This document shows, piece by piece, positions 9,154 through 13,975 of a stretch of DNA of 64,000 nt. The notes under the pieces are model-generated. The model made no database searches, was not told the origin of the DNA, and was given only the letters and a program-made list of their open reading frames with translations. Positions within the stretch are counted from its first letter, which is position 1. Every line of letters begins with the position of its first letter. Source of the DNA: Escherichia phage AV101; sequence record OQ973471.1; one strand, 5' to 3'. A program made the position numbers and the translations under genes.

Positions 9154-9495
9154 ATGAAACTCAATAAGATTCTTCTGGTGTGCGCTCTGGCTTTCTCTAC
9201 CACTGCGTGCTCCACCCTTCTGGACGTTGCGTCTACTGTAGACCTTGACGCGCCGACGTTCACCAATGAGCAGGCTGTGTCCAAGATGGAAGACACCATT
9301 AAGGCGCATGCGGCGTTGGATAACGCCACCCCAGGTCCGCTCCAAACTGTCTGCAACTATGACGATTCCATCCAGGAAGACGAAACTTACCACTGCATCA
9401 CCTACGTGAAGCAGGCCTCCGTCGTTCTGTATGCAGATTGTACCGAAGAACAGTGTGTTGCTACAGGCTACGATAAAGTTGAGGAAGACAAATGA
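9154..9495 (+). CDS. Small lipoprotein (putative)
   Basis: MKLNKILLVCALAFSTTACS is a signal peptide with a lipobox-like Cys; AGGTGA RBS. Start placed at the ATG at 9154. Confidence 0.5.
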   Translation: MKLNKILLVCALAFSTTACSTLLDVASTVDLDAPTFTNEQAVSKMEDTIKAHAALDNATPGPLQTVCNYDDSIQEDETYHCITYVKQASVVLYADCTEEQCVATGYDKVEEDK

Positions 9496-10271
9496 ACAAC
9501 CTGGTTTGTATCTATGATATGAAATCAAAGGTCGGTGGCCTGTATCGCGTTCTCGTGGATGTTGACCTGACGTTGGTCGACAGCCTCTCCCCTTGGGTGC
9601 AGTGGTTCAACGAAGAGAACATCGCCGCCGCTGCTATCGCTACGGGGGAACATAAGTCATACCAGTTCCAGCCGATTACCAAAGAGTGTTATATGTCCCA
9701 TGCTGGCGACCTGGCTATTCTGATGCGTGAACGTGCGCATCCGGCGTGGCTATACCATGAAGTCCAATTGGGGGTGCACAAACAACGTGTGCCAAGCGGT
9801 AACGATCCTATGGACTGGTGGCGTCGCCCTGACTTGTACGCCAAGATGAACCCGCTCCCCGGCGCTTACGAGTTCCTGGTAAATCTGAAGGATATCTTGC
9901 TTGAAGATTTCGACAATGTTGAATTCGTTGCGGTGTCGAAGTGCGAGCCGGAACACGAGCGCAGCAAGCGCCAGTTTGTCTACGACAAGTTCCCTGGTAT
10001 CTTCAACGGGTTTGTCAGCACCGACGAAAAGCATCTGCTGGCAGGCGATGTCCTGATTGATGACAATCCGAAGTATGTCGAGCCGTGCGGTCTGAACAAC
10101 ATCTTTGTCATCTTTGTTCCTCAGGGCAATTATGAAAAACTGGATCTTTCGAACTCGGAAGATATGCTTTATATTAAACCAGTAGAAGGTCAGAATCACT
10201 TCGACTTCCTGAATTACAATATTGTTGAAGTGGTTAACCGCCTGATTAGTCATTATCAATACGTCCGATAG
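9492..10271 (+). CDS. HAD-superfamily phosphatase, possibly a 5'(3')-deoxyribonucleotidase
   Basis: HAD motif I VDVDLTLVD (DxDxT) and motif IV VLIDDNP; start overlaps the upstream stop (ATGA). Confidence 0.5.
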   Translation: MNNLVCIYDMKSKVGGLYRVLVDVDLTLVDSLSPWVQWFNEENIAAAAIATGEHKSYQFQPITKECYMSHAGDLAILMRERAHPAWLYHEVQLGVHKQRVPSGNDPMDWWRRPDLYAKMNPLPGAYEFLVNLKDILLEDFDNVEFVAVSKCEPEHERSKRQFVYDKFPGIFNGFVSTDEKHLLAGDVLIDDNPKYVEPCGLNNIFVIFVPQGNYEKLDLSNSEDMLYIKPVEGQNHFDFLNYNIVEVVNRLISHYQYVR

Positions 10272-10280
10272 GAGGACATC

Positions 10281-10586
10281 GTGCAAGATCAGAATAAGTT
10301 CGGGGAAATCCCCGACGAGCGTTTCGGTGATAGCGACATGGATGGCGTGATTAACCATGTGAACAACTTCATTCGCCAGCAGGAGACTCCGACTCCTATC
10401 GGCGCAGCCAAGGCTCTTCATGATGTACTGGTGAAGATCGGCCAGCGCTCTGAAGCGGATGAAATCTTCTATAACTTCGACGACCAGTATAAAGTGAAGT
10501 TTGAAGAGAATGGCCGCCCACAGGTTGCTGTGTTCTGGGCACCTTGGCTGGGCGGCGTGAGCTGGCGTATTGAGGATGCTGTGTAA
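10281..10586 (+). CDS. Hypothetical protein
   Basis: GTG start with AGGAGG RBS; 101 aa. Confidence 0.45.
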   Translation: MQDQNKFGEIPDERFGDSDMDGVINHVNNFIRQQETPTPIGAAKALHDVLVKIGQRSEADEIFYNFDDQYKVKFEENGRPQVAVFWAPWLGGVSWRIEDAV

Positions 10587-11272
10587 TGCTGTCGCTCTAC
10601 CTGATCACGAATCTCGTCAATCATAAATTCTATATCGGTGTCACCTCAGAACCGGATAGGCGGTTGGCTGAGCATAAGTGTGGTCAGGGGAGCATTGCAT
10701 TACAACGAGCGTTCAAGAAATACGGTGAAGACCAGTTCAAGTTTGAAGTTCTGTTCCGAGGGAAAGATTCGGTTATCCTTCAGATAGAGTCTGAACTGGT
10801 CTGCCAGGAGATCCTTGACTCTGGGTGGTGCTACAACATGGTCGTCGGGGGTGGGAAGCCTCCATTGGCCACGCCTAATTCATCTGCAAAGAGTGCTGCA
10901 ACCCGCAAACGTTTGATCGCTGAAGGTAAGATTAAACCTCCACCAAGACTCACCCCTGAAGCACAAGCCAGAAAGGGTAAGATCATAAGCAAATTGATGT
11001 CAGAAGGGAAGATCCCCAAACCACCAAGACCTTCCTCTGAATCTCAAACGCGTGGAGGGGAAACTAGGAAGAGGCTGCATGCTCTTGGCCTGATAGACAT
11101 TGGTCCTGGCCGCGATGAAACGATTTACAAATGGCAGCACAAAGATGGTCGCATTGTTGAGTTAAGAAGATGCGATATGGAACTTCAATATGGCCTCCCT
11201 TCCGGTAATATAACGAATCTCTTGAAAGGTAGGGCTAAAACATGTCTCGGTTGGAGAATATTAAATGGCTAA
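10586..11272 (+). CDS. GIY-YIG homing endonuclease (Seg-like)
   Basis: N-terminal LYLITNLVNHKFYIGVT...RRLAEHK GIY-YIG core; C-terminal tandem basic repeats KIKPPPRLTPEAQ / KIPKPPRPSSESQ; TAATG overlap with the upstream gene. Confidence 0.65.
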   Translation: MLSLYLITNLVNHKFYIGVTSEPDRRLAEHKCGQGSIALQRAFKKYGEDQFKFEVLFRGKDSVILQIESELVCQEILDSGWCYNMVVGGGKPPLATPNSSAKSAATRKRLIAEGKIKPPPRLTPEAQARKGKIISKLMSEGKIPKPPRPSSESQTRGGETRKRLHALGLIDIGPGRDETIYKWQHKDGRIVELRRCDMELQYGLPSGNITNLLKGRAKTCLGWRILNG

Positions 11273-12182
11273 AATAATTGTAGTGAAAGGCACCTCGGCC
11301 ACGGGCAAGGGTACGAGAGTGGTTCAGTTCATCGAATGGCTCCGTACGAAGCTGGAGCCTACCGAACTGACCTACACAGTTGGTGACAAGACTCGCCCGT
11401 TTGGCTTGAAGTTCGGAGAGCTGAAGTTAATCTTCGTTGGACAGTACACCGTGTCTAACAAATCCGGCCTGGCTTCCTGGACTTCAATGGATGCAATCCA
11501 TGCTGCTACAGGCTCAGGCGATATTGCTCGTGATCTAATCAAGTGCTGGTTGGTTCAGGGATACACTCTGGTGTGCGAGGGTGAACCCCTCATGCTGTCG
11601 GACAAATGGCGTCCTGAATGGATGTTCAAGAACTATCCGATTGAATCATTGGCGCTGCTGTACTTTGCGTACCCCGACCGCTATCAGTACGATGCTCGTA
11701 TCCGTGGTCGCTCTGGTAAAGAAGCAGGGAACTCCGGCTGGTCGCGCAACGAATCTTACTCCAAGGAGTTTGAGAAGTCGAAGGCCGAAATGCTGGCGCT
11801 GGGCTTCACTGTGGCTGTTGATGATTACAGCGGACAGGATATCCTGTATAAATCACCGAATGTCAACACCCAGGAGTTCCTGACCAGCCAGCAGTCAGAG
11901 TTGGCGGTACTACCGTTCGACGCCCCGCTTTGGGTGGTGGGTAACGCGATTTGTCATCAGATACGGTCCGAACTGCGTGAAGTTAACATGGACACCAAAG
12001 ACTTCTACGCCTACTGTGAAACCAATCCGATGACCCGTGAGGTCGGCGGTGAGGATCCTTTGGCGCACAGAGTCCCTGAGAAGCCGCAGAAGGCATCCAA
12101 AACTAAAACCAAGGCGAGCGCCCAGCCAGAAGCAACGAAGGCAGCGTCGCGCTCTCTCCTTGACCTGATGAAGAAGGGGTGA
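11265..12182 (+). CDS. P-loop nucleotide/nucleoside kinase-like protein
   Basis: N-terminal IIVVKGTSATGKGT is an NMP-kinase-type P-loop (GxxxxGKGT); 305 aa; overlaps neighbours at both ends. Confidence 0.45.
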   Translation: MAKIIVVKGTSATGKGTRVVQFIEWLRTKLEPTELTYTVGDKTRPFGLKFGELKLIFVGQYTVSNKSGLASWTSMDAIHAATGSGDIARDLIKCWLVQGYTLVCEGEPLMLSDKWRPEWMFKNYPIESLALLYFAYPDRYQYDARIRGRSGKEAGNSGWSRNESYSKEFEKSKAEMLALGFTVAVDDYSGQDILYKSPNVNTQEFLTSQQSELAVLPFDAPLWVVGNAICHQIRSELREVNMDTKDFYAYCETNPMTREVGGEDPLAHRVPEKPQKASKTKTKASAQPEATKAASRSLLDLMKKG

Positions 12183-12184
12183 TC

Positions 12185-12382
12185 ATGAAACGGTTGTCTA
12201 ATTATCTGTTGTTCATCGGTCTGATTATGGCAGCTATTTCAATGTGCGTTGGCCTGGCGTATCATTTCACTTCTCTGGATTTAACGACCTCAGAGAAGTT
12301 GAATGTGACTGTGATGTACTGTATTGGCGCGGTGATGTCTATCGGCGCTGCTGGTTACAAAATATTCAAGGAACCAAAATGA
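12185..12382 (+). CDS. Small membrane protein
   Basis: 66 aa with two hydrophobic helices; ATG at 12185 with AAGGGG RBS. Confidence 0.4.
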   Translation: MKRLSNYLLFIGLIMAAISMCVGLAYHFTSLDLTTSEKLNVTVMYCIGAVMSIGAAGYKIFKEPK

Positions 12383-12756
12383 AAATTCAAATCCCTCGCG
12401 ATGCTGTAGCTATTGCGATTGACTACACCGGAAACGCCAAGCACATTACTGCCGTGCGCCTGATTCCTGAAAAGAACTGCGTCATCCCTCAGTTCCAGCT
12501 GAATGCCAATCCGTCGTCCAAAGACTTCGGCAAGTGGTTACAGGCTGCTCCGTTCCGTACCCAGACGAATGCTCAGATGTTCATCTCGGGTAAGACCCAC
12601 ACTGCAGCCCGTCTGTGGTTCGTGACCGCTGACCGTCGCTTTGTCGATATGTGGGAACGTCCGATGGGGTTCGTGAAGCCGGAAGATATTCAGCTGGCTC
12701 CTGAGCCTGAAGCTGTGGCTCCTGAAGAGGAAGCGAAAGATGCATCATTTATCTAA
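12379..12756 (+). CDS. Hypothetical protein
   Basis: ATG at 12379 overlaps the upstream stop (ATGA); 125 aa. Confidence 0.4.
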   Translation: MKIQIPRDAVAIAIDYTGNAKHITAVRLIPEKNCVIPQFQLNANPSSKDFGKWLQAAPFRTQTNAQMFISGKTHTAARLWFVTADRRFVDMWERPMGFVKPEDIQLAPEPEAVAPEEEAKDASFI

Positions 12757-13975
12757 AATGCCGACGGGCTATACGCCTCCGACTGAATGGAAGTACCCGA
12801 TTGACCTATCTGTTGACTACCGTAAACCTGAGAATCGCATGTACCTGCTCAAGGCTTGGGTGGAGGCGCTGTCCTATACAGAAGAGCACAACCAACAGAT
12901 GCGTCTGATGGACTATGCGATTGAAGTCACTGAAGGCATCAGCCTCGAACAGAAAGTCGAGCGCAAGATCTGGATGGCATTCCTGTGGGGTTGTTGCTAT
13001 AACGCTGTCGGACCGTGGACGATCTACAGTGAGTTCCCTGTGCCGCCTCAGTCTAAGGAAGAGATGCAGCGCTTCTCAGACTGGTACAACCTGAACTTTG
13101 AACGCATGCGATTCGATACCGACTGTCGCTACCGCAAGTCCAAGATGATTCCGTGTGTTCAGTCCTATATTGACTGGCTGGCTGGTCGTACTCAATATGA
13201 CGCTTTCCGTGGGATGCTGGTGTGCATCGATAAGACAGAACAATTCACCCAGCTGTGGGACACGGCGATGTCCTGGAAATACTTCGGTCGCCTGAGCGCC
13301 TGGAACTTCCTGGAAGCCCTGAACATGGTCTTCGGGAACGAATACACCATTGACGTCCCTGGCTTCATGCTGCGTGATCGTGATGGAAGCGAGTCCAACC
13401 GTAATGGCGCGGCGTTCTTGTCTAACCGTGACGATTGGGTGACTAAACACGGGAAGAAAAAGATCAACGGTTGCCCTATCACGGATGAAGAGTGTGACAT
13501 CCTTGAGGCCGACCTTGAGCAGGCGTTCCAGGATTGTGTGGCTGAGTTCGGGCACCTGACGTTCATCAACCGCCTGAACTTTGAAACCTCCGGTGCTTGT
13601 TGGCTGAAGAAATTCTTCCGACTGAAGAATACCCGTTACATCGGGTGGGACGCAGAGCGTACATGGGATGAGATCGACTACATGGAACGCGTCTGGCCTG
13701 AATACTCCTGCGCAGCGCTCTGGGAAGCCCGTTCGCTCTGGCTGCCAGATACCCTGTTGTGCGAAAAGGCTCCTGCAGGGCACGTTCCAGGCGTCCAGAA
13801 GTGGAAGATGCCTGTGTTCTTTGAGACTGGTGTTCCTCTGCATATCTGGCACCTGCAAAAGGGTACGCGCTGGGAACCATCCGAGGTATGTACGAACCTG
13901 AAGATGCCTGTGCGCAAGGTTGAGGACAAGTCGAAGTCCAGCAGCGTCAACCTCATGGCACTCTTGAAACGCTGA
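12740..13975 (+). CDS. Hypothetical protein; candidate base-modification enzyme by context only
   Basis: 411-aa ORF translationally coupled downstream of the P-loop kinase gene; no motif recognised by eye. Confidence 0.4.
   Translation: MHHLSKMPTGYTPPTEWKYPIDLSVDYRKPENRMYLLKAWVEALSYTEEHNQQMRLMDYAIEVTEGISLEQKVERKIWMAFLWGCCYNAVGPWTIYSEFPVPPQSKEEMQRFSDWYNLNFERMRFDTDCRYRKSKMIPCVQSYIDWLAGRTQYDAFRGMLVCIDKTEQFTQLWDTAMSWKYFGRLSAWNFLEALNMVFGNEYTIDVPGFMLRDRDGSESNRNGAAFLSNRDDWVTKHGKKKINGCPITDEECDILEADLEQAFQDCVAEFGHLTFINRLNFETSGACWLKKFFRLKNTRYIGWDAERTWDEIDYMERVWPEYSCAALWEARSLWLPDTLLCEKAPAGHVPGVQKWKMPVFFETGVPLHIWHLQKGTRWEPSEVCTNLKMPVRKVEDKSKSSSVNLMALLKR

Follow-up and report, generated by a model that had tools for sequence, protein, structure and literature searches.

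Within the thymidine-hypermodification gene cluster of Escherichia phage AV101, an open reading frame with a GIY-YIG nuclease domain lies between the DUF7254 gene and the gene for the HMUD2 5-hmdU DNA kinase. The question raised by this locus is whether the ORF is a mobile gene that still acts on the junction it occupies, or a gene that has been kept for another task, shuffled passively among relatives or left to decay. The region was analysed in a window of 64,000 nucleotides from the sequence record OQ973471.1, and the features discussed are collected in Table 1. With a probability of roughly 80%, we read the ORF as an active free-standing (Seg-type) GIY-YIG homing endonuclease, specific for the DUF7254/5-hmdU kinase junction of Ackermannviridae.

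The product of the ORF is 100% identical to a 'SegD-like protein' of Escherichia phage AV101 (Agtrevirus) in GenBank and matches phrog_19446 'homing endonuclease' (E=2.5e-104). The surrounding 5 kb display 91-95% identity to the Agtrevirus-like Ackermannviridae phages A221, RPN242, ChubbyThor and Ag3. Neither the kind of gene nor its annotation is new, since genes of this family have been annotated as homing endonucleases from the Ag3 genome record onwards and the PHROG family carries the same name. No functional data on the gene are given in the LIMEstone1 paper, the Dickeya phage paper, the Ackermannviridae review or the AV101 paper; the last does not mention it, and these papers do no more than list genes of such type. 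The public record of A221 leaves the ORF without annotation. A tblastn search of the 64 kb window returned only the gene itself and no paralogue.

Table 1. Features of the endonuclease locus and its surroundings (positions are those of the window).
Feature	Position	Strand	Basis
Family B DNA polymerase gene (polB)	6092-9091		
DUF7292 gene	9145-9495		
NT5C-like nucleotidase gene	9492-10271		
DUF7254 gene, upstream neighbour; stop overlaps the endonuclease ATG (TAATG)	10281..10586	+	Pfam PF23912, E=2.7e-50; junction alignment
GAGGA ribosome-binding site, 9 nt before the endonuclease ATG	10572..10576	+	read from sequence
Endonuclease ORF, putative free-standing GIY-YIG homing endonuclease	10586..11272	+	ORF listing; ATG to TAA, 228 aa plus stop
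GIY-YIG catalytic domain, aa 1-92	10586..10861	+	Pfam, 1MK0 profile match, invariant columns, hhalign, AF2/Foldseek
Basic module R1, aa 95-121; predicted helix 97-112, then linker EGKIKPPPR	10868..10948	+	shuffle test, AF2
Mosaic segment, nt ~336-503 of the gene	10921..11089	+	alignment, segment identities, mismatches in 12-nt bins
Basic module R2, aa 122-148; predicted helix 124-139, then linker EGKIPKPPR	10949..11029	+	shuffle test, AF2
Basic module R3, aa 149-175; predicted helix 151-166, then linker LGLIDIGPGR	11030..11110	+	shuffle test, AF2
C-terminal beta-beta-alpha-alpha-beta domain (predicted), aa 176-228 (about 53 aa)	11111..11269	+	AF2 model
GGAGA ribosome-binding site for the kinase, within the last endonuclease codons	11253..11257	+	read from sequence
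8-nt overlap ATGGCTAA, endonuclease end/kinase start	11265..11272	+	endonuclease stop TAA drawn from kinase codons 2-3 (GCT AAA)
Kinase gene first ~75 nt, apparently travelling with the element	11265..11340	+	identity drop past about 11340; allele survey
HMUD2 5-hmdU DNA kinase gene, downstream neighbour, thymidine-hypermodification enzyme	11265..12182	+	Pfam PF18747, E=4.8e-157
Kinase P-loop codons 11-13, candidate recognition/immunity site	11295-11303	+	allele survey
Amino-acid:DNA transferase-like protein gene	12740-13975		

The N-terminal part bears out the GIY-YIG core and homing-endonuclease identity that a sequence-only reading had proposed. It matches Pfam PF01541 well above the cutoff (33.4 bits vs 22.6, E=5.5e-8, aa 3-57), as do all 12 family members, and a profile built from these 12 members matches the catalytic domain of I-TevI (1MK0) at E=4e-7. 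When full-length I-TevI, the archetypal GIY-YIG homing endonuclease from the td intron of phage T4, was aligned with the family profile by hhalign, a probability of 94% was obtained over aa 3-87. This alignment equates Y5, Y16, R26, H30, E68 and N84 with the six catalytic residues Y6, Y17, R27, H31, E75 and N90 of I-TevI, and all six are invariant in the family alignment, which includes members down to 50% identity. The AF2 model has a mean pLDDT of 81 overall and about 84-95 over aa 1-80, and Foldseek matches it to 1LN0/1MK0 at E about 2e-4 with a TM score of 0.67-0.72 normalised to the target, suggesting that the alpha/beta fold of the I-TevI catalytic domain is present. The protein can thus be placed in the GIY-YIG superfamily by sequence, with putative metal-dependent DNA cleavage. 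Assignment to the group I intron endonuclease family TIGR01453 (NCBIfam) was rejected, since the match is confined to aa 4-111 and, at 46.8 bits, falls short of the cutoff of 56.05.

Downstream of this domain, the protein consists of three basic modules and a small C-terminal domain. Each module of 27 residues comprises a predicted 16-residue helix followed by a Gly/Lys/Pro-rich linker, and the whole array (aa 95-175) contains 18 Lys+Arg vs 6 Asp+Glu. Using composition-preserving shuffles (5000 per pair), the observed pair score was never reached for R1-R2, reached once for R1-R3 and 48 times for R2-R3. TRF detected no DNA-level tandem repeat under the modules; the repeat is old and visible in the protein only. 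The tandem basic KPPR repeats described in the sequence-only reading are therefore real at the protein level, but there are three modules rather than two, of which R1 and R2 end in KPPPR and KPPR, and they occupy the central part of the protein rather than its C-terminus, which is formed by the domain of about 53 aa. This domain is the most conserved part of the endonuclease, with 97.8% nucleotide identity to the Kuttervirus copy, and is presumed to be a sequence-specific DNA-binding head.

The general architecture of an N-terminal nuclease, an extended linker and a small, presumably DNA-binding C-terminal domain appears to be shared with I-TevI. Beyond the homologous catalytic domain, the likeness of the repeats to the DNA-binding modules of Seg/I-TevI-type enzymes holds for the architecture only. 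The hhalign alignment with I-TevI stops at residue 87, and the DNA-binding half shows no detectable similarity to that of I-TevI. At E up to 10, Pfam NUMOD3 matched neither the complete protein nor its module region taken separately, and none of the 12 family members showed a match. I-TevI contains a zinc finger, whereas the AV101 endonuclease contains none and has no Cys between residues 83 and 195; I-TevI uses a single minor-groove helix, in contrast to the three tandem helix/Pro-linker modules found here; and I-TevI is encoded in an intron whereas the AV101 endonuclease is free-standing. The best fold match for the modules and C-terminal domain is I-HmuI of phage SPO1 (PDB 1U3E), although all matches fall below significance: the full model gives E=0.026, the C-terminal half by itself E=0.09 with a probability of 0.89. 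Pfam I-HmuI_NUMOD-like likewise produced sub-threshold matches in 10 of the 12 family members. I-HmuI differs in its nuclease class, which is HNH rather than GIY-YIG. Across Pfam, fold search and hhalign, the modules and C-terminal domain have no significant match to any characterised DNA-binding family.

The position of the gene had been described as close downstream of the DNA polymerase gene, which is only loosely true: polB ends 1.5 kb upstream, and three genes (DUF7292, NT5C-like and DUF7254) lie in between. The neighbour that matters is the kinase gene, which is presumed to be the target gene of the endonuclease. The endonuclease ORF shares 1 nt with the DUF7254 stop and 8 nt with the kinase start; both neighbours are intact, and the ORF lies between them rather than inside an intron or intein. 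Kinase codon 2, from which part of the endonuclease stop codon is drawn, is GCT in the window vs GCA in naive empty-site alleles. In phages without the element, the GAGGA site upstream of the endonuclease serves the kinase gene. The GGAGA site in the last endonuclease codons is kept in all endonuclease copies, including those of Vibrio phages. Since the endonuclease takes over the old ribosome-binding site of the kinase and supplies a replacement within its own last codons, insertion of the element would barely disturb expression at the junction. In 9000-12500, promoter and terminator consensus matches do not exceed their frequency in shuffled sequence, and the stretch immediately ahead of the gene has none. 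The endonuclease gene is probably co-transcribed with its neighbours.

This translational interlock with the kinase gene, whose start overlaps the ORF by 8 nt and whose ribosome-binding site lies within it, also fits a former homing endonuclease that no longer homes and is kept for another job. Such a protein might exclude or outcompete relatives in the same cell without spreading its own gene, or it might repress or adjust expression of the kinase gene that overlaps it; I-TevI, for comparison, acts as an autorepressor. That the DNA-binding C-terminus, and not the nuclease domain, is the most conserved part agrees with a role of this kind, but the invariance of all catalytic residues speaks against it, and we consider it improbable.

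The distribution of the gene among relatives bears on its mobility. About 276 phage records holding the DUF7254/kinase junction were surveyed, and the endonuclease gene was found in 21 of them (about 8%, or about one in thirteen); in roughly 215 the site is empty, and in up to 39 it is occupied by something different. The 21 carriers, at identities of at least 87%, belong to four enterobacterial genera, namely Agtrevirus, Limestonevirus, Kuttervirus and Taipeivirus. A precise empty site, in which the DUF7254 stop overlaps the kinase ATG, occurs in LHE287, MK-13, SKML-39, kage, Marshall and HMGUkp5. In the closely related LHE287, the two genes overlap directly as TAATG with no gene between, and comparison with the window defines an insertion of 679 bp between TAATG and the kinase ATG, bounded by repeated AATG. 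Homologues of 50-76% identity in Vibrio phages and metagenome contigs occupy exactly the same junction. The presence/absence comparison with related phages suggested in the sequence-only reading thus revealed a true insertion polymorphism. Neither of the signs of domestication it had named, uniform presence and loss of catalytic residues, was found. A gene recruited for another job would be expected to be fixed in its lineage, which is at odds with its occurrence in only about 8% of records spread over four genera.

The same junction is filled in LIMEstone1 and PC3 by a different, distantly related GIY-YIG-like ORF. This gene, F-LimXI (ORF186 of Dickeya phage LIMEstone1), has been listed as a free-standing GIY-YIG endonuclease (PMC3296691). 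Like the AV101 endonuclease, it follows DUF7254 and precedes the kinase gene, and the two nuclease domains are distantly related (hhalign probability 88%), with phrog_314 matched by both proteins. Unlike the AV101 endonuclease, F-LimXI has no basic module array and runs in frame into the kinase gene without a stop codon, giving an ORF of 498-531 aa; it is absent from the 39 records that match the AV101 endonuclease at an identity of at least 50%.

Sequence identities across the junction are consistent with transfer of the gene between lineages. Compared with the Kuttervirus phage pertopsoe, the endonuclease gene has 89-98% nucleotide identity vs 71-84% in the flanks, and the Taipeivirus copy likewise exceeds its flanks in identity, but more weakly than the Kuttervirus copy. 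In 60-nt windows, identity to pertopsoe remains at 96-100% from 11040 to about 11340 and then falls to 75-88%, and identity to XF4 drops to 56-76% past about 11340. The high identity reaches into the start of the kinase gene, where no difference separates the window, XF4 and pertopsoe over the first ~57 nt. Conversely, the kinase of the element-less LHE287 matches the window at only 81% over its first 100 nt (19 differences) vs 97% over the rest. The endonuclease gene, for which likely mobility had been proposed from sequence alone, is apparently spreading between phage genera; its being far more alike between genera than its flanks is hard to reconcile with a gene retained for another job.

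The coding sequence itself appears to be maintained. All three parts of the endonuclease have a dN/dS of 0.06-0.10, indicating purifying selection, and the copies are full length (228 aa) in all 10 phage loci examined. A decaying, functionless relic at the end of the homing cycle is scarcely credible: nothing specific favours it apart from the missing annotation in A221, and it is contradicted by the low dN/dS, the full-length copies and the invariant catalytic set. In turn, strong purifying selection shows only that some function has been retained, which would suit a gene with another job.

A further reading ascribes the patchy occurrence to ordinary homologous recombination with occasional deletion among co-infecting Ackermannviridae, the nuclease being inactive or acting on another substrate. 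The region is indeed mosaic throughout, as exemplified by the divergent kinase alleles of XF4 and PC3 and by a swapped segment inside the endonuclease gene, and the shared kinase flank could have resulted from plain recombination instead of break-driven co-conversion. Nevertheless, this reading leaves poorly explained the strict occupancy of a single site across lineages as distant as 50% identity, and the retention of the catalytic residues together with low dN/dS. In other phages the junction is occupied by a second, different GIY-YIG-like gene, as would be expected if it were a homing site. Patchiness from recombination and deletion by themselves is thus very improbable.

The swapped segment distinguishes two types of the endonuclease. 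It has about 62% nucleotide identity to Ag3/RPN242/A221, whereas the rest of the gene has 96-99%, and its exchange between the AV101-type and Ag3-type lineages affects module R2 and the beginning of R3. In AV101-type copies R2 is similar to R1, in Ag3-type copies to R3.

Where in the kinase gene a homing endonuclease might act is suggested by the alleles at codons 11-13. In the naive empty-site alleles of Vi01, Marshall, MK-13, LHE287 and HMGUkp5, these codons read AGC GGC/GGT ACG (Ser-Gly-Thr) and belong to the Walker A loop. In carriers with an intact kinase they read TCG GCC ACG, AGT GGC GTG, TCG GGT GGC, AGT GGC GTA, TCG GGG GTG, AGC GGC GTG and AGT TCA ACT, and residues 12-13 are never Gly-Thr in the intact carrier lineages examined (AT, GV, GG, GV, GV, GV and ST, respectively). 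The carrier P46FS4 has naive-like codons 11-13 and a 1-nt deletion just downstream. Among the 30 listed of the 43 records with the Vi01-type tract, none contains the element. Carriers in three genera have the first ~57-75 nt of the kinase gene in common, yet the same AV101-type tract occurs without the element in 17 of 28 records, including Det7, CBA120 and S118. The tract is thereby ruled out as an exclusive mark of carriers, and the existence of element-linked kinase tracts without the element fits passive recombination as well. From these alleles we infer that recognition or cleavage by the endonuclease may involve 11295-11303 and its surroundings, with the carrier substitutions conferring immunity; the inference is weak, since the pattern covers about seven lineages only, P46FS4 is an exception and 17 of the 28 AV101-type tracts are element-less. 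Phages with such a tract could have lost the element or received the flank alone. The tract, being found in element-less records, could also be the ordinary allele in which the element first landed.

In a small set of copies, the type of endonuclease and the P-loop variant go together: all five AV101-type copies lie next to TCG GCC ACG, and three of the four Ag3-type copies next to AGT GGC GTG. Simple linkage may explain this pairing equally well. A doubtful, speculative extension is that the three-module array is a groove-tracking head that reads DNA with bulky hypermodified thymines (5-NeOmdU) in the major groove, and that the R2 swap retunes its specificity in step with the P-loop variants. 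If true, endonuclease specificity and target-site immunity would be evolving against each other, in an arms race fought on the gene that starts the hypermodification pathway.

On the favoured reading as an active homing endonuclease, the protein would be expressed together with the neighbouring replication and modification genes. During mixed infection with an element-less relative, its C-terminal domain would bind the start of the kinase gene, and the three basic helix/Pro-linker modules would lie along the DNA, like the extended DNA-binding regions of I-TevI and I-HmuI. The tethered GIY-YIG domain would then cut near the kinase gene start, probably in or next to the P-loop codons. Repair of the break by the phage recombination machinery from an element-bearing template would copy the 679-bp element together with about 75 nt of the kinase gene, while the carrier genome would be protected by its substitutions in kinase codons 11-13.

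The Seg endonucleases of T4-type phages (SegA-G) are GIY-YIG homing endonucleases encoded by free-standing genes, and flanking sequence is co-converted as these genes spread. The AV101 gene resembles them in standing free between conserved genes, in its sporadic occurrence among relatives and in the flanking tract apparently shared with the gene, and its catalytic domain is 36-43% identical to Seg proteins of T4-like phages. Seg-like proteins of some T4-like Klebsiella and Acinetobacter phages align to residues 171-188, i.e., through the modules. Orthology to SegD, as implied by the name 'SegD-like', was rejected, the similarity being confined to the catalytic domain: KVP40 SegD aligns over aa 1-89 only (40% identity), and the T4 matches cover aa 2-89 only. 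The AV101 endonuclease further differs from the Seg group in its locus, a thymidine-hypermodification kinase gene, and in the phage family that hosts it, the Ackermannviridae.

The endonuclease matters little beyond annotation. Within a phage family with hypermodified DNA, it provides a clean and testable case of a homing endonuclease bound to a single site. It also points to a recombination hot spot in the initial ~60 nt of the kinase gene, at a site that two different endonuclease genes occupy in different phages. When Ackermannviridae are compared or engineered, the gene explains both the mosaic junction and the mosaic 5' end of the kinase gene. If characterised, the enzyme could become a tool for site-specific cleavage of DNA in the presence of 5-hmdU-derived modifications.

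The endonuclease gene lies within a thymidine hypermodification cluster, whose other members are listed in the table. At the DUF7254/kinase junction of the phages LIMEstone1 and PC3, a different ORF is found, a distant relative of the AV101 endonuclease family (hhalign probability 88%) for which Pfam returned no match. No stop codon separates this ORF from the HMUD2 kinase gene, whose reading frame it shares, and the kinase N-terminus MAKIIVVKG is replaced there by ...TPGIVVIRG. The labels 'guanylate kinase' and even 'homing endonuclease F-LimXI', which the kinase gene bears in several records, appear to be annotation errors passed down from the fused LIMEstone1 ORF. Public annotation also misses the intact 228-aa endonuclease ORF of Escherichia phage A221, in whose record the start of the kinase gene is placed 54 nt late.

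The DNA polymerase gene is intact in AV101; the annotation of RPN242, PC3, XF4 and LIMEstone1 splits it into fragments, with intron or endonuclease insertions interrupting it, those of LIMEstone1 being I-LimII and I-LimIII.

Homologues of the endonuclease differ in length and architecture. The protein of Vibrio phage 207E48.1 carries an additional, fourth basic module between R2 and R3 (the second and third 27-residue basic modules of the AV101 protein), indicating that module count is variable across the family. The metagenome homologue is 4 residues longer at the C-terminus, and its gene has 23 nt in common with the kinase gene, versus 8 nt in AV101.

Features in the window and in homologous loci (L)
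Feature	Location	Description
Family B DNA polymerase gene	window 6092-9091	single intact ORF, 999 aa
Hypermodification cluster	window 9492-13975	NT5C-like nucleotidase; HMUD2 5-hmdU DNA kinase; ADDT / aGPT-pyrophosphorylase-like transferase
F-LimXI, LIMEstone1	L013:2698-4293	divergent GIY-YIG-like ORF, DUF7254/kinase junction
PC3 counterpart	L003:3689-5185	divergent GIY-YIG-like ORF, DUF7254/kinase junction
Endonuclease, A221	L015:1201-1887	
Homologue, Vibrio phage 207E48.1	L019:2501-3238	50% identical, 245 aa
Homologue, metagenome contigs	L023:2286-2984; L024:428-1126	63% identical
Kinase P-loop codons, P46FS4	L016:1880-1945	1-nt deletion

In Salmonella phage P46FS4, which carries the element, the kinase P-loop codons read GGGAAAGG-TACG. 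The 1-nt deletion shifts the kinase frame, and the record annotates a shortened kinase whose start lies 220 nt further downstream. A sequencing error may account for the missing nucleotide, or else damage where the enzyme presumably cuts.

The element-linked 5' tract of the kinase gene (window 11265-11341) is also present in many phages without the element, including Det7, CBA120, S118, SJ3, SKML-39 and kage. Over its 77 nt, 17 such records are 97-100% identical to the window, and they also hold the GCT codon that is the source of the endonuclease stop codon. The tract in these phages is possibly the footprint of past element loss, or of conversion of the flank only.
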